Assembly: GCA_035489575.1 (NCBI GenBank)
Contig: DATHJY010000013.1
Location: forward strand, 155,346 to 219,345
Direction of reading: 5' to 3'
Origin: Verrucomicrobiia bacterium
GTDB lineage: Bacteria > Patescibacteriota > Saccharimonadia > Saccharimonadales > JAGQNK01
DNA: 64,000 bases
Under the pieces are notes generated by a model. That model worked only from the letters and a program-made list of their open reading frames with translations, was not told the origin of the DNA and did not search any database. Of the stretch, positions 1 to 46,406 are shown in pieces. Position numbers and translations under genes: made by a program. Every line of letters begins with the position of its first letter. The stretch's first letter is position 1.

Positions 1-800
1 TGACGTACGTCACGTACGGCTCGGCCCGCCACCAGCCCGTCCACTACAGCTTCTACCAGAACCGCGCCAGCGAGCGTGTGCCCGGCCAGGGACCCAACTG
101 CATGTTCTTGCAGTTCCCGACCGCGCATCTGGAGGCAGTGGACGGCCCCAACCACACCCACGACTTCATGCGCGACGTCACGGCCGGGCTGCCCGACCTG
201 GTGTACGTCCCCCGCATGCGCGGAGCAACCCTGGGCGGCCTCGCCACCCGGTCAGCCCTCGGCGCGCCCGTGGTCGTGGAGCATGGTGACTACCACCTCA
301 TCCTGTGCAGCTCGCCCAGCCGCATCCTGGAAGCCCTGGATCAGGTGCCCCCCAGCCGTCGGCCGGCGCATACCGCGCAGCTCGAGGCCCTGGCCGCCTG
401 GTACGGGGAGTGGTACCCGGATCACTCGTTCGTGCTGGCCTGCTTCAACGGCAGCGCCAACCCGCGGCACCCGATCGCCGTCAGGTACGTCCCCAACAAC
501 GACGACGTGGTGTTCGCCCCCGGACTGGACGGCCACACTGGCAACGTGCCGATCATCGGCCAGCCCATCGTGCGTGACTTCTACGTCGCGTTCGCGGTCC
601 AGGGCCAGCAGCTGCCGATCAGCTTCCGCTACCAGCACGGCGGCTTCATCATCCAGCCCGACTGGGCCCCGCTGCCGAACCTGGGAGTCGCCGGCTTCCA
701 CGACAACCGCTTCGACGCCCCCAACGGCGACTACACCGTCGCGGTCGACAGCCTCCGGCAGGGCGCTTCCGGCCACGAGCTGGTGGACGTCCTGATCTGA
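1..800 (+). CDS. hypothetical protein, 5' end outside window (high-GC island I1)
   Basis: Frame 3 is open from nt 3 to TGA at 798-800 (the ORF track starts it at GTG 78). Codon usage is GC3-rich, unlike the adjacent genes. No motif recognised. Confidence 0.6.
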   Translation, partial: TYVTYGSARHQPVHYSFYQNRASERVPGQGPNCMFLQFPTAHLEAVDGPNHTHDFMRDVTAGLPDLVYVPRMRGATLGGLATRSALGAPVVVEHGDYHLILCSSPSRILEALDQVPPSRRPAHTAQLEALAAWYGEWYPDHSFVLACFNGSANPRHPIAVRYVPNNDDVVFAPGLDGHTGNVPIIGQPIVRDFYVAFAVQGQQLPISFRYQHGGFIIQPDWAPLPNLGVAGFHDNRFDAPNGDYTVAVDSLRQGASGHELVDVLI

Positions 801-5276: not shown

Positions 5277-5344
5277 AACTACCAGTATACGCCAGCCTAC
5301 AGAAGAAGAGGGGGCTGTCTTTAGCACAGCGATTGAGGTTTTTA

Positions 5345-5440
5345 GGTGCCGGAGGAGGGACTGCCTTCGGCAAGTTGCAGAGCTTTCTCGGTGCAAGCAC
5401 CTGCGAGAGCTCTTTGCGAGCGAACCCTCGGCTTCGCCGT
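5345..5440 (-). pseudogene. tRNA-Leu 3'-half fragment interrupted by a 58-nt insertion in the T-loop
   Basis: 5345-5362 is identical (18/18) to tRNA-Leu 5503-5520. 5421-5429 (cgaaccctc) matches the other T-arm half at 5521-5529. The two blocks are separated by 58 nt (5363-5420). Confidence 0.5.
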
Positions 5441-5470
5441 ACGGGTCCGAGGTACTTTCAATACCAAAGT

Positions 5471-5501: not shown

Positions 5502-5589
5502 TGGTGCCGGAGGAGGGACTCGAACCCTCAAGCCTTGCGGCACACGATTTTGAGTCGTGCGCGTATACCAATTCCGCCACTCCGGCTCC
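5502..5589 (-). tRNA. tRNA-Leu (anticodon CAA), CCA encoded
   Basis: The reverse complement folds as a class II tRNA. Anticodon arm cacga-CUCAAAA-tcgtg, long variable arm, T-arm gaggg-ttcgagt-ccctc, 3' CCA. Confidence 0.9.
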
Positions 5590-29539: not shown

Positions 29540-30466
29540 ATGAAAGTGCCCATGACATACGCTAGGTCTATGTCTTATTCACTGCGCCCAGGACCAAACT
29601 ATAGACCAAATACGCCAATTACTATTGAAGTTTGCTTTTTTGATATAGATAACACCCTTATCTCAAATGACAGTGCCGAGTTACCAAGCAAGCGCTTTCA
29701 ACAGATCTCGCGCAAAGCAGGCAAAAACACCCTCATAGGTGTAGCAACCGCTCGTTCACTCCAGCGTGCGCAGCACATTCTAGATGCAATTGGCTCAAAT
29801 AGCATATCAATACTAAGCAATGGCGCCGTGCTTTATGATGCGGCAAGCAAAAAGATCGTTGTCGACAATAGCCTCCCGCTTGACGCAACCAACGAGCTTA
29901 TTCGGGAATTTCGTAGGCGCACCTTTAGCTACGAAGTCCAAGATGATGGCATTGATTACACTTGGGCATATCCGGCAGGGAATGCGCCAGGAAACATGAC
30001 CTACACTTCTGCAATTGATCCACTTCATCCTCAGGGGCCTCGCAGGAAGGTACCGGACTACACTCCACGCCACCCTCGAATACTGTGTGCAACTGTTTTT
30101 AGTGATGTTGATGTAGAGCGAGTACACGCGCTGGCGTCAAAATATGCAGACAAAGATGTGACTTCTCTTGTTGGGCATACAACTCTACTTGCCGGCGGAA
30201 AGACTAAGTACGAAATCTTTGTTGTTCACAAGAACGCAAACAAGCAATGGGCAATGGCTAAGGCACTGGAAATTTTAGGCATACCTGCAAAAAACGCACT
30301 AGCAGTAGCCGACGGCCACAATGACCTGGCGTTAATGCAAATGGCGGGGATTGGAGTTGCCGTTGATAACGCAGTTCCCGAGGTGCTTGCTAACGCAACT
30401 TTTATAGCTCCCAGCCAAGAGGATGATGGCGCCGCAACTGCGCTTGAACAGTTGATAAAATTATAG
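29540..30466 (+). CDS. HAD-IIB (Cof-type) phosphatase
   Basis: FFDIDNTL (DxD motif) and ADGHNDLALMQMAGIGVAVDNA (motifs III/IV). Confidence 0.8.
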   Translation: MKVPMTYARSMSYSLRPGPNYRPNTPITIEVCFFDIDNTLISNDSAELPSKRFQQISRKAGKNTLIGVATARSLQRAQHILDAIGSNSISILSNGAVLYDAASKKIVVDNSLPLDATNELIREFRRRTFSYEVQDDGIDYTWAYPAGNAPGNMTYTSAIDPLHPQGPRRKVPDYTPRHPRILCATVFSDVDVERVHALASKYADKDVTSLVGHTTLLAGGKTKYEIFVVHKNANKQWAMAKALEILGIPAKNALAVADGHNDLALMQMAGIGVAVDNAVPEVLANATFIAPSQEDDGAATALEQLIKL

Positions 30467-30669
30467 ACAAAAGAGACGATATGTTCGTTTCTAGACTGTT
30501 TGTCACGCGCTAGGTAATAGGGGTACTTTTCAGCACCCGAAGGTTAAGATTGCTAAGGAGTTCGTTGCTTGTGAGAATGGCATGCCAGTAGGGCACATAA
30601 AAAGTCTCACCGCGACGGACGAGACTTTTTCTATCTGGGAGCGTTTCGACAAACGCTCAAAATTCAGCA

Positions 30670-30701
30670 TGGTAAGGCCATAGGGTGGTTAAGGTCGAAA
30701 C
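30670..30701 (-). repeat. ~31-nt repeat (copy 1) ending in ..ACCA, upstream of a terminator
   Basis: Minus strand: gtttcgaccttaaccaccctatggccttacca. Related to 32867-32897 and 33968-33998. Terminator hairpin at 30604-30626. Confidence 0.55.
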
Positions 30702-30765
30702 AATTTTAGAGATTGCTGAACAGCTTGACCCTAAACTTAAAGCTTTAGAGACTGTAGATACTAAG

Positions 30766-31800
30766 CTACGAACCAGTCGTAAGATTACTGTCGTCCTCAA
30801 GTGGCTTTCTGAATCGATGGTGTTCTTTCAGCGCTGAGAATCCAAGATTATCATAAAGCTGTCGACCGCCCATCTTACCATCGGCATCTGTATGCAAACG
30901 AACTATTTCCATTCCCCGAACATGAAGTGACCTAAGACTCTCCGCCATTAGCGCACCCGCCAACCCTTTACGGCGAAAAACAGGCAATACACCCACTTGT
31001 GTCACTTCGGCCACCTGAGTGTCGCTACCCGCTGCACTTTGCCTAGCCTCAACCCTGCTTAAGACAAAGCCTGCCACTTCATTGCCATGCCATGCTACGC
31101 GCCACAAGGATGAGTCGGGGCTTTGTGCTAGAAAATCTTGGTAATCCTCATCCGAATCGGGCGTATTCCCCCATGTGCCCTCATAAATTTCTTTATTTGC
31201 TTTGTATACTTTGTGTTTATCTTCTTCAGATTCTACCGGGCGGAGTTCATACCCCTCGGGCAGTGTGATGCCGTCTATTTTAGAAAAGTCCGTGAACTCC
31301 ATCTCAAGCGACGACCAGACCTTTTGATAGCCATTTTTATCGATTAACGCCAATGTGTCTTTTTCGCTTTCAGATGCATTGGCGCCCAACATCTTGGGCG
31401 CATCAATCGGATGCTCTGCGACGATCTCTTTTATCCTGTCTTGAAGTGTTTCGAGGAGACTGCCACCCACACCCTGTCTACGGTGAGCCGGATCTACCCG
31501 ACCCTGATGTAGGTACAAAAAAGTTCCATCCTCTTCGTCCCACCAGCTAACTTTTCCGTAGCCAACCACTTCATTCGTCTCACCATCAACAGCAACAAAA
31601 ACGTCAGCATCAGTGTCCGAGTTATTGGCTTCCAGAGAATTCACCAAATCTTCCAAGCTAGGGATGGATTCGAGCGTTGACAGGGAATCCACCCCATCAT
31701 TAAGTGCTGCCCTCACAGCCACTCTGTGCATGCTTGCAGCATCATCTGGTTGATAGGGCCGTATGTAGTGATTGCCGTTTTGGTCAGCCATGCTCATCAC
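30766..31800 (-). CDS. tandem-GNAT N-acetyltransferase
   Basis: Two acetyl-CoA binding blocks (HRRQGVGGSLL and FRRKGLAGALM); 344 aa. Confidence 0.8.
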   Translation of the reverse strand: MMSMADQNGNHYIRPYQPDDAASMHRVAVRAALNDGVDSLSTLESIPSLEDLVNSLEANNSDTDADVFVAVDGETNEVVGYGKVSWWDEEDGTFLYLHQGRVDPAHRRQGVGGSLLETLQDRIKEIVAEHPIDAPKMLGANASESEKDTLALIDKNGYQKVWSSLEMEFTDFSKIDGITLPEGYELRPVESEEDKHKVYKANKEIYEGTWGNTPDSDEDYQDFLAQSPDSSLWRVAWHGNEVAGFVLSRVEARQSAAGSDTQVAEVTQVGVLPVFRRKGLAGALMAESLRSLHVRGMEIVRLHTDADGKMGGRQLYDNLGFSALKEHHRFRKPLEDDSNLTTGS

Positions 31801-32518
31801 CGATTTGTGGATCTATGGGACTATACAAACTTTCTGATTTTCCATAAAACCAAGCCCATACTTGGTCACCATACGAAAAGTGATACCACTCAGGCATGCA
31901 GCTTGCAAAGCCTGCATCTAGCATGGCCCTTAAAAGTATTTGTCTAGTATTTTTTTGCTCTTGAGTTAGGTCGGAATAGTACAAGAAAGTTTCATCAGAA
32001 TCATCATTTATTTTGGCACCAAAATCCATGGACTTATTAGACTTAGCATCCAATATATACACGTCTACGGCAGCGGCACAAACATGTGGAGGCAGCGTTA
32101 TGTCGGGGTCACTTATAAAGGTCCGTGCGTGCTTCAGTGCCTCCTTTTCAGTAGCATCAGGATGCTCATCTTTATACTCTCTAGCGCATTCCACCAAGAG
32201 CTTACGTTGCACTTCAATTGGCCTATGTCCGGCTCGAATGACAAGTCTATACTGTTCATCCAATGAGTTGGCTGCTACTTGCAGTCTTTTGGCTACTTCC
32301 GAACGCAAATAGATATCGTCATATTCCGGATGTTCGACAATATAATCTCTGTATTGTTTTCCATCCCAATCGTCCTCAACCGTCCAACACGGCTCGACAA
32401 TCAGCTTGCCTGCACTGCTAACTTTTACAAGTGGGTCATCAATATTGGCAGACTGATACTTTGAAAAATCAATTCTCTCAGTGCTTTTTGATCGCTGTAT
32501 TTTTTCATCTAAGTTCAT
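31784..32518 (-). CDS. M15-family D-Ala-D-Ala dipeptidase-like protein (VanX/DdpX-like)
   Basis: AGHRPIEVQ, AAAVDVYILD and PEWYHFSYG resemble VanX blocks but are divergent. Confidence 0.55.
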   Translation of the reverse strand: MNLDEKIQRSKSTERIDFSKYQSANIDDPLVKVSSAGKLIVEPCWTVEDDWDGKQYRDYIVEHPEYDDIYLRSEVAKRLQVAANSLDEQYRLVIRAGHRPIEVQRKLLVECAREYKDEHPDATEKEALKHARTFISDPDITLPPHVCAAAVDVYILDAKSNKSMDFGAKINDDSDETFLYYSDLTQEQKNTRQILLRAMLDAGFASCMPEWYHFSYGDQVWAWFYGKSESLYSPIDPQIGDEHG

Positions 32519-32683
32519 TACTAGTTAGTATACAACAATCACCTCTGTTAACTACGTAAGCACAACAACACAAGGGAATCGAACCTTGCCAACAGATGAG
32601 ACTTTTCGGTAAACAAAAAGTTCCAGCTACTGCTAGAACTTTTCCTATCTGTCGGTGTTCGACAAATCTATTTCCCTAAAAAT

Positions 32684-32822
32684 GGTGACCTCGGGGAATC
32701 GACCGACGTTCCGCCGGCCCGGAACTTCTGCCATGGCAACAAGTTGCCAGGTGAAGATTCCCTTGCGAACAGCCACAGGCTGTTCTCACCCGATTGCGGC
32801 AATCGAGGGTTCGATGCTCAAG
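32684..32822 (-). ncRNA. candidate small RNA: structured module M fused to a degenerate tRNA-Glu 3' end, then a U-run
   Basis: Minus strand: ...gcaatcggg-[74-nt module, 32718-32791]-...ggtcgattccccgaggtcacca-ttttt. The last ~22 nt match the 3' end of tRNA-Glu (34748-34772) apart from indels. Confidence 0.4.
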
Positions 32823-32866
32823 AAATAACCAAGAAAAATACCCCACACGAGGTGGGGTATTTTTCT

Positions 32867-32897
32867 TGGTGAACCATAGGGTGAGTAGGGTCGAAAC
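32867..32897 (-). repeat. ~31-nt repeat (copy 2)
   Basis: Minus strand: gtttcgaccctactcaccctatggttcacca, directly followed by terminator hairpin 32838-32860 plus a U-run. Confidence 0.55.
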
Positions 32898-32988
32898 GTT
32901 CTTCGGTGAGATGGAATATCTTGAACCAAGGCTGAAAGCACTCGAGGTATGATAAATGCATGAAGACGGGGTGCTACACACGCTGTGT

Positions 32989-33903
32989 CTAGCCTTCAAA
33001 AACATGAATTGGACCATTCGCTAACCATGCCTCAATATTGGCGATCATCATATCATTGCCAATTCTGCTGGTAGTAGTGCTGTATGAAGCGATGCATGGA
33101 GTGGCGAGCACTTTGGGATGCGTTTGTAATTTCAAATATAGTGGATTCGTGATGTCACCAGGCTTTGCATTCATAACATCAAAAGCTACTACAGCCAGCC
33201 TGTTGCTATCAAGCGCATCAAGCATTGCGTCAAAATCAACCGTAGCATCTACGGTTACAGAGATAAATGCGGCGCCGGTCTTGAGTGACTGAAAGAACCT
33301 CTGATCCAGTAATCCTTTGGTAGTAGGATTAGCACTGAGGGTATCTACGACTATGTCGGCATCCTTAACTTTTTCGACCAAAGTATCGCCTCGCTTAAAA
33401 TACTGTACATCCATATCCAAGGCCTTGCATACCGAGCCAACGCGCTTGCCGATATTGCCACAACCCAGAATTGTTATATTCTTATCGGCTAAGCCAGGCG
33501 AGCGAACAGGCGTTGGGGTAGTGGGTTCTTCTGTTGTATTTATATAGTGCATGAACTTGCGCGTAGTCTCGAGCACCATAAAAATGATCCATTCCGAAAC
33601 AGCATGACGATTACTGCCAGGGCTATTACAAAGGGTGATCTTTCTTGACGCGAGTATTTCCGAATCTGCAAAGCTACTCACCCCAACGAAAGGTACCGTG
33701 ACAAGCACATCACTTAGTCCGCTATAACTCTCTCGGAGCCCCGTTATTCCTGAACATACAACATCGAAGCCAGCGCAGCGCCTGAGCCATTCTTCTGGTG
33801 TTACTGCTATATCATCATAGAATGTCACAGTCCCCAAGCTGTTAAGCTTAGTCTTTTGTTCTTTTGACAAATCTAAAGGCTGAGTAACAACAATTTTCGT
33901 CAT
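32989..33903 (-). CDS. D-isomer-specific 2-hydroxyacid dehydrogenase family protein
   Basis: NAD-binding ILGCGNIGKRVG. ATG 33903 (MTKIVVTQPL) is preferred to the track start. Confidence 0.8.
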   Translation of the reverse strand: MTKIVVTQPLDLSKEQKTKLNSLGTVTFYDDIAVTPEEWLRRCAGFDVVCSGITGLRESYSGLSDVLVTVPFVGVSSFADSEILASRKITLCNSPGSNRHAVSEWIIFMVLETTRKFMHYINTTEEPTTPTPVRSPGLADKNITILGCGNIGKRVGSVCKALDMDVQYFKRGDTLVEKVKDADIVVDTLSANPTTKGLLDQRFFQSLKTGAAFISVTVDATVDFDAMLDALDSNRLAVVAFDVMNAKPGDITNPLYLKLQTHPKVLATPCIASYSTTTSRIGNDMMIANIEAWLANGPIHVFEG

Positions 33904-33967
33904 ACTGTCATGATAGCAATCGACGTAACAAATGAAAAAGCCCGAATTTGACGTTCGGGACTTTTCA

Positions 33968-33998
33968 TGGTGAATCATAGGGTGAGTAGGATCGAAAT
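33968..33998 (-). repeat. ~31-nt repeat (copy 3)
   Basis: Minus strand: atttcgatcctactcaccctatgattcacca, followed by terminator hairpin 33941-33959 plus a U-run. Confidence 0.55.
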
Positions 33999-34098
33999 CT
34001 TGCTTGACGATTTGGAGGAGATGGATTTAAAATTTGAAAGTATTAGGTATATAATAGTATACGAAGGTTTACATAGTACTTAGTCAGGAGAAATAGTT

Positions 34099-34374
34099 AT
34101 GTCGGCAACCCAAGCCATAAAGCTAGATGATGAAACCAATAATCGCCTAAAGGCACTGGCACAGCAGCGCGATAGGTCTGCACACTGGTTAGTGCGCGAT
34201 GCACTACAACGATACCTCGCCGAGGAAGAACGCTTTGAACGCGAGAAAGCGGAAGACTTAGCAGAATATGAAGATTATCTACTTACCGGTAAGGCCATCG
34301 ATAACGAAACAGTTACGTCTTGGCTTACGGAACTCGCAGACGGCAAGAAGACAGCATGGCCAAGGCAAAAATAG
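34099..34374 (+). CDS. ribbon-helix-helix antitoxin (ParD/CopG-like)
   Basis: N-terminal RHH (IKLDDETNNRLKALAQQRDRSAHWLVRDALQRYL). It overlaps the toxin gene. Confidence 0.7.
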   Translation: MSATQAIKLDDETNNRLKALAQQRDRSAHWLVRDALQRYLAEEERFEREKAEDLAEYEDYLLTGKAIDNETVTSWLTELADGKKTAWPRQK

Positions 34375-34655
34375 TCTGGCGCGAACGCGCTCTTGGTGAT
34401 ATTGATCGCCTATACAATTTCTTGTTCGACAAAAATGAGGAGACGGCCGCAAAAGCAGCTCAAGTAATCTTGCGAGGCAGCTCACTGCTTGAGCAGTCGC
34501 CACGACTAGGGCGTCCCATGGCAGACGGCACAGGGAGACGTGAAATATTTATTCCATTTGGGGCTGGTTTTTATGTACTGCGTTACTTCCTCGCAGATGA
34601 CATTGTTGTTATTATTCGCGTTTGGCATGGACGCGAGAATCGAAAAGAAGCTTAA
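34356..34655 (+). CDS. ParE/RelE-family toxin
   Basis: MAKAKIVWRERALGDIDRLYNFL...YVLRYFLADDIVVIIRVWHGRE is typical of the ParE/plasmid-stabilisation fold. Confidence 0.75.
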   Translation: MAKAKIVWRERALGDIDRLYNFLFDKNEETAAKAAQVILRGSSLLEQSPRLGRPMADGTGRREIFIPFGAGFYVLRYFLADDIVVIIRVWHGRENRKEA

Positions 34656-34716
34656 AAACTGGATTACGACTGGCAAACATGCAGTAAAAGTTCGATGCCC
34701 AAAGAAATAGCCAAGT

Positions 34717-34744
34717 AAAAAGCCCACGCATTGGTGGGCGTTTT
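34717..34744. terminator. bidirectional terminator 3' of tRNA-Glu
   Basis: Stem gcccac/gtgggc (34722-34727 with 34734-39), flanked by an A-run and a T-run. Confidence 0.7.
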
Positions 34745-34747
34745 ACT

Positions 34748-34822
34748 TGGTGACCTCACGGGGAATCGAACCCCGATTGCCAGGATGAGAACCTGGTGTC
34801 CTAACCGTTAGACGATGAGGCC
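34748..34822 (-). tRNA. tRNA-Glu (anticodon CUC), CCA encoded
   Basis: The reverse complement GGCCUCAUCGUCUAACGGUUAGGACACCAGGUUCUCAUCCUGGCAAUCGGGGUUCGAUUCCCCGUGAGGUCACCA folds as a cloverleaf. Confidence 0.9.
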
Positions 34823-34930
34823 AAATATCGAGTAGGCAAGAAATTTGCGGCTCATACAAAGCATGAGGCCATGAACGATGAAATTCGAGAAGTATACTAC
34901 CACAACAGAGAGGGAATGTCGAGAAATAAA

Positions 34931-34959
34931 TTGACTTAATTATGATAAAATGTTATAAA
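34931..34959 (+). promoter_or_regulatory. sigma70-type promoter TTGACT-17-TATAAA for island I9
   Basis: -35 at 34931-34936 and -10 at 34954-34959. Confidence 0.55.
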
Positions 34960-35015
34960 TACATAGTTCATCAACCATCCGACAGGACCGTTGTCCTTCA
35001 CAATTCGAGGTAACC

Positions 35016-35345
35016 ATGACACTTCCTCTCGCATCCGAGCGCCTGCGCGACGAATCCGCCGCCAAGTGGCGATGGGCCTTCCTACAGTTCATCCTGCTCC
35101 TGGGCGCCCTCGCCGCCGCAGTCTGGGTGAGTCTGGACGTTACCGTCTGGATCCCCAAGGGAACCGAGCCCGATCCCGGCTTCGTTGATACGTTCGCGAT
35201 CTGCGGCTGGGTCGTCGTGGCATTCATGTTGCTCCGTTCGATCCCGGCAACCATCATGGAAGCCAAGCTCCTCTACCAGCGAGCCAAGCTGGCCATCGTC
35301 AGCGAACATGCCGTTCGCAGCGGGCCAACCACCACACCACGCTAA
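35016..35345 (+). CDS. 109-aa membrane protein, 2 TM (high-GC island I9)
   Basis: ATG preceded by GAGGT at 5-nt spacing. Contains WAFLQFILLLGALAAAVWV and FAICGWVVVAFMLL. GC3-rich. Confidence 0.65.
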   Translation: MTLPLASERLRDESAAKWRWAFLQFILLLGALAAAVWVSLDVTVWIPKGTEPDPGFVDTFAICGWVVVAFMLLRSIPATIMEAKLLYQRAKLAIVSEHAVRSGPTTTPR

Positions 35346-35601
35346 CCCGCCGATGAACAACCCCTCGGGGCAGCCCATGCGTCCGCCACCCGGCAGGCAG
35401 CACTGGAACCCTCGAGGGAAGCGCCGTGCGATAAGCATATGTACCTGGACTTTCACCGTCCATCTACCTCTATAAACTTACCGCACGTCTCCCCTCATTT
35501 TTATACACACCAGAAGCCCACGTAAATTACCCTTATCACCTTATTTGGCTTATACTGAACATCAAAGCATAAGATGTTTGTATGGTGGTAGATAGCAAAA
35601 C

Positions 35602-37443
35602 ATGAATCACGTCCCTCGTTCTTGGCTCCAACGTTTCCAGGCTAGCCTGGCTGTTTTTGACCTATTGCTCATAGGCGTCTTTGTCTACACTAGATTTCTG
35701 TCCGATGCCGTACCTCAGGCTCTGGAAGGTGGCATCCATTCCCACGGCGCAGGTATTGTGGGAGCTCCCTGGGGTGTCACGTCGCTTGTCGCTGGCCTGG
35801 CTTTGTTCCAGCTGGTCTACCTTGCCGGATTTGTCTGGTGGCTGGACAAAAAGTATCAGCTATGGCGAATACATGCGCCGAGCGTCCTCATAACCGGAAT
35901 CATATTGTCGCTGTTGGTCAATGCCGACACGCCCGCACATATGCCTTACCATATACTGCTCATGATCTTTATGTTCTTGGCGGCCATGGTTGGCACGTTG
36001 GTTGTGGGCCTCACTTTCTCTCTGGCGTTCACACTCCTGATTATCGGATCCTTGGGCTCAGGGCACCTTGTTCATGATCCCAGCGGACATGTCATAGAAA
36101 TGATCTTGGTCAGCCTGTCTGGTGTAGCTGGCAGCGCAGGATGGTTTGTGTTTCACAAAAAATACGTGCAGGCCGTAGATACCAAGGCGCTAGCTAGCCT
36201 GACCAACCTTATCAAGCAAGAGCGCACCACGGTCAGCCTCATACTCGAGTCAATTGCCGATGGTGTCATGGTTATCAATACCGAAGGCATTGTGCAGGTT
36301 GTCAACGCCAGCTGTGCCAAGATGCTAGGCTGGACCAAAGAAGACGCCCAAAACTTGCAGTATGAGGTTTTGCTGCAGCTCGTAAAGCCCGAGGAAAAAT
36401 CAACCAACCCAACGCCTGAAGCCACACAGGAATCTCTGATAATACCCCTGAGTGCCAGCACCGGACAGCCGCAGCAACAAGTCAGCTTGGTCAAAACGCG
36501 GGACGGCCGGCAGATCTACGTAGACATCACAGCCTCGCCCATCTTCCAAGAAGAAAGGGCAGCCGCGGGCACCCTCAAAAAAGTAGTAGGTGTCATTGTG
36601 GTGCTCCGTGATGTTGACAAACAAAAGCGCGAAGAGCAACAACGCAGCGAGTTTATATCGACAGCCAGCCACGAAATGCGCACCCCCGTAGCCGCCATAG
36701 AGGGCTACTTGGCGCTAGCACTCAATGCCCAGGTCAGCCAGGTAGACGCCAAAGCTCGGAGCTTCCTGGAAAAAGCCCATGCCAGCACCGAGCACCTCGG
36801 TAAGCTATTCCAAGATCTGCTGACCAGCGCAAAAGCAGAGGACGGACGCCTGGTCAGCCATCCTCAGGCTGTAGAGATGGGAGCTTACCTAGAGCAGTTG
36901 GTCGACAGCCTACGGTTTGCAGCAGAGAAAAAAGGACTGCTTATGGACTTCACCGTAGGGGCCGGCAACGAGGCCGCCGAACTATCCACGGGTAAGGTTA
37001 TAAAACCCCTATATTTTGTGCATGTTGACCCGGACCGCCTGCGCGAGGTTATCACCAATCTGTTCGACAACGCCGTCAAATACACGCCTTCGGGCAAGAT
37101 CTCTGTCGGGCTAACCGGCAACCAACAGGTTGTCCAGTTTTTCATCCGCGACACTGGCCCAGGCATTCCTGCAAACGACGTCCCGCATCTGTTCCAAAAG
37201 TTCTACCGGGTAGACAACTCGGCCACCCGCACCGTCGGCGGTACCGGTCTAGGGTTATTCATTTGCCGCAAGATAGTCGAACTCTACAAGGGCCGCATCT
37301 GGGCAGAGAGCGAGCTAGGGCAGGGCAGCAGCTTCTATATAAACCTGCCTCGTATTGACAGCCAAAAAGCCTCCGAGCTCCAAACCCTCGAGGCACAAGC
37401 CCAGGCCAACACCAGTCCCCTCGACAACTCAACCCAGCACTGA
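35602..37443 (+). CDS. multi-TM PAS sensor histidine kinase
   Basis: About six N-terminal TM segments, a PAS-like region, H-box SHEMRTPVAAIEGY, and an HATPase domain (DNAVKYT, DTGPGIP, GGTGLGL). Confidence 0.85.
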   Translation: MNHVPRSWLQRFQASLAVFDLLLIGVFVYTRFLSDAVPQALEGGIHSHGAGIVGAPWGVTSLVAGLALFQLVYLAGFVWWLDKKYQLWRIHAPSVLITGIILSLLVNADTPAHMPYHILLMIFMFLAAMVGTLVVGLTFSLAFTLLIIGSLGSGHLVHDPSGHVIEMILVSLSGVAGSAGWFVFHKKYVQAVDTKALASLTNLIKQERTTVSLILESIADGVMVINTEGIVQVVNASCAKMLGWTKEDAQNLQYEVLLQLVKPEEKSTNPTPEATQESLIIPLSASTGQPQQQVSLVKTRDGRQIYVDITASPIFQEERAAAGTLKKVVGVIVVLRDVDKQKREEQQRSEFISTASHEMRTPVAAIEGYLALALNAQVSQVDAKARSFLEKAHASTEHLGKLFQDLLTSAKAEDGRLVSHPQAVEMGAYLEQLVDSLRFAAEKKGLLMDFTVGAGNEAAELSTGKVIKPLYFVHVDPDRLREVITNLFDNAVKYTPSGKISVGLTGNQQVVQFFIRDTGPGIPANDVPHLFQKFYRVDNSATRTVGGTGLGLFICRKIVELYKGRIWAESELGQGSSFYINLPRIDSQKASELQTLEAQAQANTSPLDNSTQH

Positions 37444-44110: not shown

Positions 44111-44734
44111 TTATGGGGCCATGAGTGGCACAAACAAGAAACCTTCGTAGGTCTCAGTGTGCACCTGACCATGCTCATCTTTTATAACTTGTACCAAGGC
44201 ATGCCCAATCGGCATAACCAACACTCCTGGCGCTGCCAGCTGATCTAATAACTCTTGCGGAACCTCTTGAGCCGCCGCCGATACCAAAATCCGATCGAAC
44301 GGTGCCTCCTCGGGCAGGCCCATCACCCCTGACGCACACTCATGCATGTGCAAATGGGACATGTTGAACTTGGCGACGGCCTTGCGACTCTTGTCTACCA
44401 GTTCGGGGATTCGTTCCACCCCGTGGACTACGCCCTGAGGCCCCACAATATAAGCCAATAACGCCGAGGTCCACCCAGAACCCGAGCCCACATCCAGCAC
44501 CTTATTGCCCGTCTCGGGCCGCAGCAGTTCCAGCATAAAGCCCACAGTGTAGGGCTGCGAGATAGTCTGGTGGTGGCCAATAGGCAGTGCCTGGTCGTAG
44601 TAGGCCTGGGCCTTATGAAAAAGCGGCACAAATTGCCGCCTGTCGATATGGACAAATGCCTCGTAAATACGAGGCGTGTGCGCCACATGATCGTTTCTGA
44701 GCCTTCGTGCGAGTGATCTGTTACTCATATCCAA
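44111..44734 (-). CDS. pcm: protein-L-isoaspartate O-methyltransferase
   Basis: TISQPYTVGFMLELL and SAM motif VLDVGSGSGWTSALLA. Confidence 0.85.
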   Translation of the reverse strand: MDMSNRSLARRLRNDHVAHTPRIYEAFVHIDRRQFVPLFHKAQAYYDQALPIGHHQTISQPYTVGFMLELLRPETGNKVLDVGSGSGWTSALLAYIVGPQGVVHGVERIPELVDKSRKAVAKFNMSHLHMHECASGVMGLPEEAPFDRILVSAAAQEVPQELLDQLAAPGVLVMPIGHALVQVIKDEHGQVHTETYEGFLFVPLMAP

Positions 44735-44759: not shown

Positions 44760-45500
44760 ACAGCCAAAAACCTCTCACAACATGAGAGACCCCGAGCGGG
44801 TCTCTCATCGCGCGGGGAAAATGTGCTCCATTTTCTCCGGCTGCTCTTCCTGAAAACGGATAAGTACTTTTGGGAGTAAATCCCAAAAGTACTTGCTTTA
44901 TCAATGGGTTTGCACAAGAGGAAAGCCCGAGAACTTGTTCCTCGGCGCGCTAGGAGGGGAAATCATCTCCTCCTAAAATTAACTAAAAAGAGCCCGCAGA
45001 GGGTGAGACATGCCTGTGGCATGTTGCAAGGGAACCTTCCGATGGCAACTTGTTGCCAATCGCGAAGTTCCGGGGTCGCGCTAGCGCGACTGGGCACCTG
45101 GCCGTAACTAAAAACGGGCCTCCGAGAGGGGGTGGGCACCACTCGAAGACCCGATTTTAGGGAACAACCGAAGTTGCTCCCAACCACCCTTCAACCCACC
45201 CCAGCGAAGCGTCGATGTCCAAAACTCCATAAAGACTCGCGCCGGCCTCGAAAGGCCATACTTGCATACTCACTTTGAAACGGGGACCCTTAGATTCTCG
45301 AAAGATCCTAAGGGGCTAGTTAAAGGGGTTAGTTTGTTTTAGAACGCCGCCCGCCGGCAAGCCAGTAAGCAACGCCAAGAATAAGTGGAGGGTAACAACT
45401 CATAATCAGCACGTTCTAAAACAATCTAACAAAACATTCTGTGTAAACACAGAACTGTTAGAATAGGGGGTATAAGGTGCGTAATTTACCATTACAGTAA
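44760..45500 (+). ncRNA. large structured non-coding region (candidate ncRNA of unknown class)
   Basis: About 750 nt with no credible ORF, densely packed with perfect local hairpins (for example gtacttttggga/tcccaaaagtac at 44874-44902 and gtcgcgc/gcgcgac at 45085-45100). It contains module P at 45011-45084. Strand is inferred from a G.U pair in hairpin 44825-44849. Confidence 0.3.
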
Positions 45501-45533
45501 TTACAAATTGTCATTTTACCAAAAATATTATAT

Positions 45534-46406
45534 TTGTCAACACCTTTTATGAAAAAAGTCAACATGGTTACGCTTGAGGAATCCGCACTTCCGGACAGGA
45601 TTACCTCTGTTATACCACCACCAAAACAGCTCTATATACAGGGACCTCTAAAAAGTTTTTTGCAGGCCCCTTGTATTGCTATTGTGGGCAGTCGCCGGGT
45701 CAGTCCCTACGGTCGGGCGGTCACCCTTAGATTGGCCCAGGAACTGGCCGAACGGGGCATTGTTATTGTCAGTGGGCTGGCCATTGGCGTTGATAGCCTG
45801 GCCCACCAGGCAGCCCTGGATGCCGGGGGACGGACTATTGCCATTTTGCCGACGGCCCTCAGTAGCATCTATCCACGCAGCCATACCCACCTGGCGCAGA
45901 GCATATTACAGGCAGGCAACGTCCTGGTAAGCGAATATGCCGACGATACCCCGCCCATGAAGCACCAGTTTATTGCTCGCAATCGCCTTATTGCCGGACT
46001 GGCAGATGCCGTCCTGATACCAGAGGCAGCAGAGAAGAGTGGCAGCCTACACACCGCAGCCTTTGCGCTAGAGCAGGGCAAAACCATCCTGGCAGTACCT
46101 GGTAACATCACCAGCGAGTTATCACGGGGCACGAACAACCTGGTCAAAACAGGGGCCATTCCCGTCACGGCTGTGTCAGATATTTTCTATGCGCTTGGCA
46201 TAGAACCCACCCTCAGACAACTCCGCCTCCCCGCGGACGAAACAGAGTCAATTATCTTAGACCTGCTCCAACAAGGCACAACCGATATGACCCAGCTCCA
46301 GATCCAGAGTGGACTAGACCCGGCTCTATTTAATCAAACACTCACGATGCTGGAACTAGCTGGCAAGATCCGTTCCGTGGGCGCTGGTCATTGGGCCACC
46401 ACATAA
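45534..46406 (+). CDS. dprA: DNA-processing protein DprA (Smf)
   Basis: IVGSRRVSPYGR...IVSGLAIGVDSLAHQAAL. Start uncertain (TTG 45534 or ATG 45549). Confidence 0.85.
   Translation: MSTPFMKKVNMVTLEESALPDRITSVIPPPKQLYIQGPLKSFLQAPCIAIVGSRRVSPYGRAVTLRLAQELAERGIVIVSGLAIGVDSLAHQAALDAGGRTIAILPTALSSIYPRSHTHLAQSILQAGNVLVSEYADDTPPMKHQFIARNRLIAGLADAVLIPEAAEKSGSLHTAAFALEQGKTILAVPGNITSELSRGTNNLVKTGAIPVTAVSDIFYALGIEPTLRQLRLPADETESIILDLLQQGTTDMTQLQIQSGLDPALFNQTLTMLELAGKIRSVGAGHWATT

Follow-up and report, generated by a model that had tools for sequence, protein, structure and literature searches.

What is the small base-paired RNA module that occurs twice, on opposite strands, in a 64,000-nucleotide (nt) window of contig DATHJY010000013.1, and how did it come to be there? 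The window (the whole stretch of DNA that was analyzed) carries one copy on the minus strand (copy A) and one on the plus strand (copy B). Both belong to a multi-copy family that is Saccharibacteria-specific and previously undescribed, new as far as Rfam and the searched literature show. The reading favored here, to which we would give about an even chance, is that of a non-autonomous structured RNA module that was spread by insertion and is kept under selection. Confidence is high in the family, its fold, its strand, its taxonomic range, and its junction rule taken together.

A sequence-only reading of the window had described a 74-nt module at 32718-32791 (minus strand) and again at 45011-45084 (plus strand). 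Copy A was placed correctly, while copy B was off by 10 nt and lies at 45001-45074 on the plus strand; at 45011-45084, only 20 of 74 positions match copy A. Once copy B is placed at 45001, the two copies align without gaps and agree at 58 of 74 positions, as had been counted. Each copy folds independently into two hairpins. Direct reading and alignment bore out the compensatory changes proposed between copies A and B, namely three double substitutions in hairpin 1 (A-U/C-G, C-G/A-U, and A-U/U-A) and a further two in the inner segment of hairpin 2 (C-G/G-C and C-G/A-U). The segments described as invariant, GGGUGAGA, GGCAAC-UU-GUUGCC, and GGAA(N)CUUC/GAAGUUCC, are the same in both copies. The module had been reported as present twice, and a covariance-model search of the 64-kb window returned exactly two sites, copies A and B. 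Against independent copies in other genomes, identity reached 85% for copy A (E = 1e-17; the best E value, 7e-20, came at 83%) and 93% for copy B (E = 4e-23), and a chance likeness of the two window copies is thereby excluded.

A base-paired module with three hairpins

The full module is ~87-98 nt long and forms three hairpins (P1, P2, and P3). A U-GAGA start is followed by P1, a 10-bp helix in which an A·G mismatch is conserved and the triloop is NGY. P1 is joined through an AG linker to P2, a long hairpin with the conserved base GGAA(N)CUUC/GAAGUUCC, an inner stem that varies, and a loop of CUNG or URY. P2 is joined through a GG linker to P3, which has 7-8 bp and a GAA-type triloop. The ends of the consensus are TGAGAA at the 5' side and ...CGTGAC or ...GGTAGG at the 3' side. 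The 74-nt extent first proposed was too short, as this third covarying hairpin follows on its 3' side. For copy A, the original box (32718-32791, minus strand) held three flanking G residues, P1, P2, and the first base of P3.

According to the alignment and consensus fold, the full copy A module starts with U-GAGA and occupies 32703-32788 on the minus strand (covariance model, 100.9 bits), with P1 at 32764-32788, P2 at 32721-32761, and P3 at 32702-32718. The closing pair of P3 borrows the first base of an adjoining tRNA fragment. The full copy B module occupies 45004-45090 on the plus strand (92.9 bits), with P1 at 45004-45028, P2 at 45031-45071, and P3 at 45074-45090.

The claim of a conserved base-paired module was upheld, and its compensatory changes were massively supported by homologues. 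Pairing was scored for 34 pairs in an alignment of 74 distinct copies (alignment A1), with 500 shuffles and slid partners as controls. Helix cells were paired 96.3% of the time, compared with 79.4% in shuffled alignments and 27-46% with the partners slid. Double-change cells numbered 417 versus 122 in shuffles, and 22 pairs showed double changes. None of the 500 shuffles reached any of the five covariation measures. The search pattern contained a fixed P2 base, and covariation of that base was judged on the 20 copies found by the covariance model only. The P2 base covaries in these pattern-independent copies as well; one pair, for example, was AU in 6, GC in 6, and CG in 6. Helix cells contained 119 G·U or U·G and 30 A·C or C·A combinations. 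This four-to-one excess of G·U over A·C places the structure on the tRNA-sense strand; the complementary strand would be much worse paired. Two variant modules were observed, one in locus L048 (4756-4822) with P2 replaced by a short CCGGAAGCCGG hairpin and one in locus L006 (4540-4651) with a ~14-nt insertion within P1.

The family was collected with the pattern GCAAGGGAANCTTC-N18-34-GAAGTTCC, scanned over 185,579 species genomes. In total, 76 loci were found; ~5 of them look like chance matches in unrelated taxa and ~71 are real. The real loci were nearly all from metagenome-assembled genomes (MAGs) of Candidatus Saccharibacteria/Saccharimonadales, with several loci per genome. The covariance model recognized at least 93 full-length copies in 71 loci, often two to four per 8 kb. 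Gene order in the window is the same as in Saccharibacteria MAG loci L070, L026, and L068, at 68-73% nucleotide identity, and this synteny indicates that the window itself derives from a Saccharibacterium. Loci L001 (labeled Nevskiaceae) and L066 (labeled Limnocylindria) bear genuine modules and may be mis-binned Saccharibacteria contigs. Two pattern scans of 2.9 million viral contigs found no module, and a phage origin was rejected on that basis. A metagenome scan with a P2-independent pattern gave only two matches, both rejected by the covariance model. Full-text literature searches found no description of the module.

The sequence-only reading had matched the module to no known RNA family, and Rfam scans of both loci, at gathering thresholds and at E <= 10, agreed. 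Over the window, gathering thresholds returned two tRNAs only. Scanned by E value, both loci and a locus with three copies gave chance-level matches only, and 18 further loci gave nothing over the module. A DUF3800-VI match was discarded: it scored 19 bits where the threshold is 35, was confined to copy A, and did not recur. Neither ARAGORN nor Rfam called a tRNA or transfer-messenger RNA (tmRNA) across either window copy, and the flanks of copy A comprise tRNA-Glu positions ~44-51 and 54-75 only, with no 5' acceptor strand. The open reading frames (ORFs) that overlap copies A and B had no Pfam match.

Junctions and tRNA-derived flanks

Junctions were scored where both flanks matched a tRNA of the same locus right up to the module, and 50 copies qualified. 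Exactly two tRNA nt were missing at the junction in 49 of the 50: GT in 28 copies, CG in 10, TT in 7, and others in 4. The base before the module was a G in 49 of 49 cases; the base after it was T in 26, C in 22, and G in one. Insertions were found at 11 tRNA positions (in the D loop, the end of the D stem, the anticodon stem and loop, the variable loop, and the T loop) and in 19 tRNA species. All 50 evaluable host sequences were partial tRNA copies. The two-base rule also holds outside tRNAs, for the copy B target and for a nested module in locus L026. There (1-210, minus strand), at the ortholog of the copy B site, one module is nested in P3 of another at CCGGG^GT^CGCGG, and the P2 base of the inner module is a compensated variant, GGCCAUUCGAC / GUCGAUGGC. 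The two-nt junction rule is the signature of a precise insertion reaction and not of gradual divergence.

Nearly every copy was embedded in sequence copied from a tRNA gene, with the intact gene within ~50-250 nt and a tRNA-to-repeat distance of typically 65-250 nt. Units upstream of the intact gene contained, in order: a promoter, tRNA position 1 to the insertion point (usually an exact copy), the module, the next ~8-10 nt of the tRNA, a spacer with a promoter-like box, and the intact tRNA. The ~8-10 nt after the module often close a hairpin. Downstream units contained, in order: the intact tRNA, a terminator, an inverted copy of tRNA positions ~42-63, tRNA positions ~45-53, the module, tRNA position ~55 to the CCA end, and a second terminator. 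Upstream and downstream units often flanked one tRNA gene (L057, L075, L027, L018, L022, L010, and L048), and tandem arrays with a period of ~190 nt were found in L074, L062, and L022. Of the partial tRNA copies adjoining modules, 64 run in the direction of the module and one is inverted. Displaced 3' copies matched the intact tRNA near-exactly from the T loop onward. Exact direct repeats of the 3' 20-25 nt of the tRNA follow intact tRNA genes, sometimes in tandem, each with its own terminator. Two modules within one pseudo-tRNA were found in L016 and L018.

The inverted arm was clear only when the region upstream of the module in downstream-type units was compared with the reverse complement of the intact tRNA. 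The mean score in this comparison was 12.0 versus 5.5 for shuffled sequence, and in 17 of 24 units none of 200 shuffles reached the observed score. A universal fold-back arm was rejected, as strict ungapped searches for flank complements barely exceeded shuffles.

In the upstream tRNA-Val pseudo-copies of L010 (2720-2765), L051, L006 (4500-4540), and L003 (3340-3385), the 3' strand of the D stem is changed from TAGAGCA to NNTGGTC and the anticodon arm is intact. This change, shared by four genomes, points to constraint on the displaced fragment or else to its common descent. An origin from the 3' end of 23S rRNA was considered for the flanks of L005, L064, and L037, which resemble it by eye, and was dropped because no rRNA model matches those loci. 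Other RNA genes were found near module-bearing tRNA loci and are unrelated to the module: a LOOT RNA in L066 (6436-6544; Rfam, 66 bits) and the RNase P RNA and tmRNA in L016 (3617-3992 and 463-856; Rfam).

Copy A is a downstream-type unit of tRNA-Glu in which the module breaks the T loop of a displaced 3' fragment. The source of its flanks is the intact tRNA-Glu(CTC) at 34748-34822 on the minus strand (Rfam, 60.9 bits; also called by ARAGORN). The tail that follows copy A had been read correctly as a tRNA-Glu 3' end and a T-run, and was taken to mark the end of a discrete transcript. It is more than a transcript end, being the displaced 3' fragment of the neighboring tRNA-Glu: positions 54-75 plus CCA with one base deleted (TCGATTCCCCGAGGTCACCA), at 32683-32702 on the minus strand, followed by the T-run. 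On the other side, the left flank (32789-32815, minus strand) contains CAATCGGG, which resembles tRNA-Glu positions 44-51, and the inverted arm ATCGAACCCTCGATTGCC (32798-32815, minus strand), a reverse-complement copy of tRNA-Glu positions ~42-58. These left-flank pieces pair as an 8-bp hairpin abutting the module. The local alignment score of the inverted arm was 15, compared with 5.7 in shuffled sequence (z = 8.9).

Copy B was correctly assigned to the non-coding region between pcm (44111-44734, minus strand) and dprA (45534-46406, plus strand), a spacer of 799 nt. The left half of its target, AACTAAAAAGAGCCCGCAGAGGG, lies at 44982-45003 and the right half, TGGGCACC, at 45091-45098, both on the plus strand. 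An uninterrupted tandem copy of this target (AACTAAAAACGGGCCTCCGAGAGGGGG-TGGGCACC) was found by direct reading at 45106-45140 on the plus strand, and the filled target lacks two G residues that are present in this empty copy. The target is not a tRNA according to ARAGORN and Rfam, neither of which made a tRNA call. The orthologous position in the Saccharimonadales MAG locus L026 is also module-bearing.

Probable insertion and selection, with competing explanations

Module identity averaged ~72% in each of three comparisons: same genome and different context, different genome and same context, and different genome and different context. As identity was equal within genomes, within contexts, and overall, recent bursts and locus-specific lineages were rejected. 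An identity of ~72% everywhere with 96% pairing fits long-lived, individually constrained RNA genes, unlike decaying repeat copies. Additionally, an orthologous tRNA-Gln unit (tRNA, tRNA pieces, and module) in L057 and L024 was 88.8% identical over 258 nt, with nearby coding DNA at 67-74%; by direct reading, the mismatches were mainly in the spacer between module and tRNA. Each copy thus appears to be kept by purifying selection on its sense-strand fold and hence is most likely made as RNA in tRNA-linked leader or trailer transcripts. That the module is both expressed as RNA and under selection is held with moderate confidence.

No gene was found to travel with the module. Transposase, integrase, and reverse-transcriptase families did not recur within ±3 kb of the copies, and none lies beside the window copies. 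Clustering of the 594 ORFs within ±3 kb gave housekeeping families only (ABC ATPase, SPFH, histidine kinase, FAD oxidase, and similar), and an associated protein partner was rejected on this evidence. GC skew keeps one sign across the window although copies A and B lie on opposite strands, and an orientation set by replication was likewise rejected.

The inverted arms give some indication of how insertion may have proceeded. In individual sequences they copy the uninterrupted target, including the two bases replaced by the module (in L033, 24 of 24 positions match). The proposed module encodes no protein; it would enter the tRNA-sense strand and swap exactly two nt between a G and a pyrimidine, and an enzyme acting in trans would be needed. 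The inverted arm would have been made while the module sat in one strand and the other strand was still intact. Copying of the intact site, together with the strict sense orientation, suggests that the module entered a single strand, which would have been RNA or else DNA opened by transcription. Repair of a nearby break might then, speculatively, have duplicated part of the gene. Confidence in this mechanism is low.

Several observations weigh against a module that was inserted and then kept for a function. A simple promoter scan found no promoter-like site upstream of copy A, nor one on the plus strand upstream of copy B. A perfect abutting hairpin of at least 7 bp was present in only 24 of 93 copies, and the inverted arm is not universal. 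The exact identity of tRNA-derived flanks to the intact gene could reflect recent events, gene conversion, or selection. Conservation in place could come from a need to keep a harmful fragment folded rather than from a positive function. Unrelated inserts occupy the same type of site downstream of the window tRNA-Leu and in L033, L009, and L039, and part of the architecture may accordingly belong to the tRNA-fragment units, or to a general displacement of tRNA pieces, rather than to this module. To our knowledge, no known process makes a 2-nt replacement coupled to partial target duplication.

A more radical proposal, possible but doubtful, is that of a new mobile element acting at the level of RNA or of single strands. 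It would be a protein-less three-hairpin cassette that enters only at sense-strand G^NN^Y sites of tRNA genes or transcripts. Insertion would entail, through a mechanical link, a break a few bases away; repair of this break would duplicate the target, and the outcome would be an intact tRNA gene flanked by invaded fragments capped by fold-back repeats. Such a selfish element would force the duplication of essential RNA genes and would then be locked in. The module might, as an alternative of this kind, be the scaffold of a new system that uses tRNA fragments as guides. Placing the element at the DNA level instead, as a selfish miniature element moved by a transposase encoded elsewhere, with hairpins that act as single-stranded DNA recognition structures and RNA without function, seems rather unlikely. 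The family does share with miniature inverted-repeat transposable elements (MITEs), repetitive extragenic palindromic (REP) sequences, REP doublets forming hairpins (REPINs), bacterial interspersed mosaic elements (BIMEs), and palindrome-associated transposable elements (PATEs) that it is short, non-coding, multi-copy, hairpin-rich, and intergenic, and that it would need mobilizing in trans. The precise junction rule, the nested insertion, and the lack of an accompanying gene also suit such an element, and a strand-specific fold that tolerates G·T is possible in single-stranded DNA too. A DDE-type MITE was nevertheless rejected, since the module ends are not inverted repeats and the target loses 2 nt rather than being duplicated. 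In comparison with the IS200/IS605-related PATEs and REPINs, hairpins do lie near both module ends and no Y1 transposase gene (TnpA/RAYT) was found within ±3 kb of 90 copies. The orientation of the module is fixed to its target, and that target is tRNA-derived, unlike in these elements. Module copies differ from one another as much as RNA family members do, within genomes as between them, with 96% of pairs intact, which is not the behavior of decaying MITE copies. The better conservation of the L057/L024 unit than of the surrounding coding DNA also speaks against a functionless element, and the opposite strands under a constant GC skew argue against insertion tied to the lagging strand.

The exact 3' repeats with their own terminators invite comparison with tRNA-integrated islands, and the module could then be an arm or remnant of a tRNA-targeting integrative element whose attachment (att) repeats remained after deletion, as in cis-mobilizable elements (CIMEs). 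We consider this improbable. A direct repeat of the tRNA 3' segment does lie downstream of the intact tRNA, units occur in tandem as in islands, and a 1.9-kb low-GC islet with ParE and RHH genes lies between tRNA-Glu and the copy A unit. In archaea, mobile elements have been described that leave 5' fragments of a tRNA upstream of its intact gene (PMC3293823). The module, however, breaks the repeat itself; it sits inside tRNA-derived sequence rather than beside it, at 11 different positions, as well as inside another module (L026) and in non-tRNA DNA (copy B). Unlike islands, the loci have 5' fragments upstream too, an insert of ~100-200 nt with an RNA-like fold, and no integrase between the repeats or near any locus. 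The 2.9 million viral contigs gave no match. Covariation of RNA type with many G·U pairs would be unexpected for DNA that binds a protein. With a structured core whose flanking sequence on either side is identical to a nearby target, sense and antisense target copies in one unit, and each copy individually conserved, the module also recalls the scaffold of an RNA-guided or RNA-templated system such as omega-RNA, reRNA, or bridge RNA, the tRNA-identical flanks being guides to the tRNA gene. There is little to recommend this in the gene neighborhoods: no TnpB, IscB, IS110, or Cas gene lies within ±3 kb, and guide-RNA scaffolds were set aside because no TnpB/IscB/IS110 family recurs there or in the window neighborhoods. 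The module is shorter than known scaffolds, guide-like flanks lie on both sides, and, with any effector that is not nuclease-dead, guiding to an essential tRNA gene would be self-destructive; we judge a scaffold to be highly improbable.

A true tRNA-gene intron, spliced by itself or by a protein, is the explanation to which we give the least credence, with hardly any chance of being right. An intron would fit the sense-direction entry into tRNA loops, and also the 5' end GUGAG, which resembles the group II and spliceosomal 5' consensus. Every interrupted tRNA is only a fragment, though, with the intact gene alongside, and removal of the module would leave it two bases short, as was found for 49 of the 50 evaluable hosts, all of them partial copies; a group I intron was rejected on these grounds. 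No Intron_gpI match was obtained at E <= 10 in the window loci, and no Rfam intron model matches. Group I introns have a P3-P8 catalytic core of more than ~200 nt, whereas the module, with three simple hairpins in ~90 nt and no unpaired core, is far below the size of known self-splicing introns. For a group II intron only the GUGAG start fits the consensus; no domain V-like hairpin, Rfam match, or nearby reverse-transcriptase gene was found, and this candidate was rejected as well. The lack of any Rfam ribozyme match and a fold with almost no unpaired core speak against small self-cleaving ribozymes (HDV-like, hatchet, hammerhead, twister, and pistol). Archaeal tRNA introns at non-canonical positions transpose between tRNA genes in Thermoproteales. 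Splicing of the archaeal bulge-helix-bulge type would yield no tRNA here, because the hosts are fragments. In a model from Caldiarchaeum, a tRNA gene was disrupted by a mobile element (PMC3293823). In common with these archaeal cases, the module family has homologous short inserts that lie, always in sense, in many tRNA species and at many places within them (D arm, anticodon arm, variable loop, and T loop), and tRNA fragments that adjoin intact genes. It differs in that its hosts are fragments and never a working gene, the target loses two bases, the carrier is a bacterium in which no splicing endonuclease is known, and no recombinase gene lies between fragment and intact gene. Patescibacteria are rich in tRNA group I introns, and group II introns are reported to be absent from them (PMC13011429). 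Those introns are likewise structured RNA elements in tRNA genes of the same bacterial group, but the module is ~90 nt long, sits in fragments, and has no group I core.

Neighboring sequences and implications for Saccharibacteria

Between tRNA-Glu and the copy A unit lies a direct repeat of 25/26 nt, CTTGG(Y)TATTTCTT(T)G(R)GCATCGAAC, with arms at 32809-32833 (minus strand) and 34690-34715, the second arm just after the tRNA-Glu terminator. The arms enclose a ~1.9-kb low-GC insert (32834-34689) that contains an RHH antitoxin, a ParE toxin, a 2-hydroxyacid dehydrogenase, and a terminator of its own. GC content in sliding 4-kb windows over 30001-36000 was 0.46-0.48, compared with ~0.53 for the window as a whole. 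The tRNA-Glu and the copy A unit, separated here by this insert, are 245 nt apart in the syntenic locus L070, and the ~1.9-kb stretch is therefore a small acquired islet. No integrase gene was found between the tRNA-Glu and the copy A repeat. Immediately after copy A (32565-32654, minus strand), ARAGORN called a tRNA-Ser(GGA) for which the Rfam tRNA model stayed below threshold. The T arm of the call (CAAGGTTCGATTCCCTTG) is good, the acceptor stem is poor, and the CCA is missing; GTCGAACACCGAC, an apparent inverted T arm, precedes the sequence. The call probably marks a further displaced tRNA-like unit and not a working gene.

The spacer around copy B has further features, at 45106-45220 and 45323-45431. 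The uninterrupted copy B target continues as GGGCACCACTCGAAGACCCGATTTTAGGGAA, and ATTTTAGGGAA is found after copy A as well. There is also a long inverted repeat, GTTTGTTTTAGAACG ... CGTTCTAAAACAA, and strong promoter-like sites were found on the minus strand at 45513-45540. The pcm-dprA spacer may contain further small RNA genes.

The clearest unrelated insert in the window lies downstream of tRNA-Leu(CAA) (5502-5586), in a unit (5340-5465, minus strand) that is built like the copy A unit. After the terminator come an inverted arm (ACCTCGG...CCGAGGGT) and the tRNA-like GAGGGTTCG; a ~60-nt insert then replaces two T-loop bases and is followed at 5345-5362 by an exact copy of tRNA-Leu positions 67-84. 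The inserts downstream of tRNA-Leu and after copy A had no homologue among the fetched loci. Units that end in an exact tRNA 3' copy and carry other inserts were also observed at L033 (3408-3506), L009 (1140-1284 and 1440-1622), L039 (1320-1480 and 1839-1990), L070 (4360-4502), and L006 (4800-4938). The types of insert included a 26-nt hairpin, multi-hairpin segments of 54-110 nt, and, in L039, a recurring '...GAAGT-hairpin-ACTTCTCGG|GTTCGAATCC'. In L020 (3235-3290, minus strand), the 3' 22 nt of tRNA-Gln occur as a tandem duplication whose copies are only 12 nt apart (GGAAGCAAGTAC). These 12 nt look like the bare scar of a lost insertion and would be one trace of a general displacement of tRNA pieces.

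For genome annotation, units of module and tRNA fragment cause false or missed tRNA calls, such as the ARAGORN tRNA-Ser beside copy A. Saccharibacteria are ultra-small epibionts with ~1-Mb genomes and little spare DNA. They nonetheless retain many module copies and dozens of partial tRNA copies around their tRNA genes. If the module is a true mobile element, its sense-only insertion, its 2-nt swap at G^NN^Y, its lack of a gene of its own, and the intact target alongside would fit no known chemistry of transposition, integration, or splicing. It would then offer a way to understand how essential RNA genes become split, duplicated, and decorated, a question that has been discussed mainly for the split and intron-containing tRNAs of archaea. 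If the module is a true functional RNA, it would represent a large new family linked to the expression of tRNAs, in a phylum whose non-coding RNAs are almost entirely uncharacterized.

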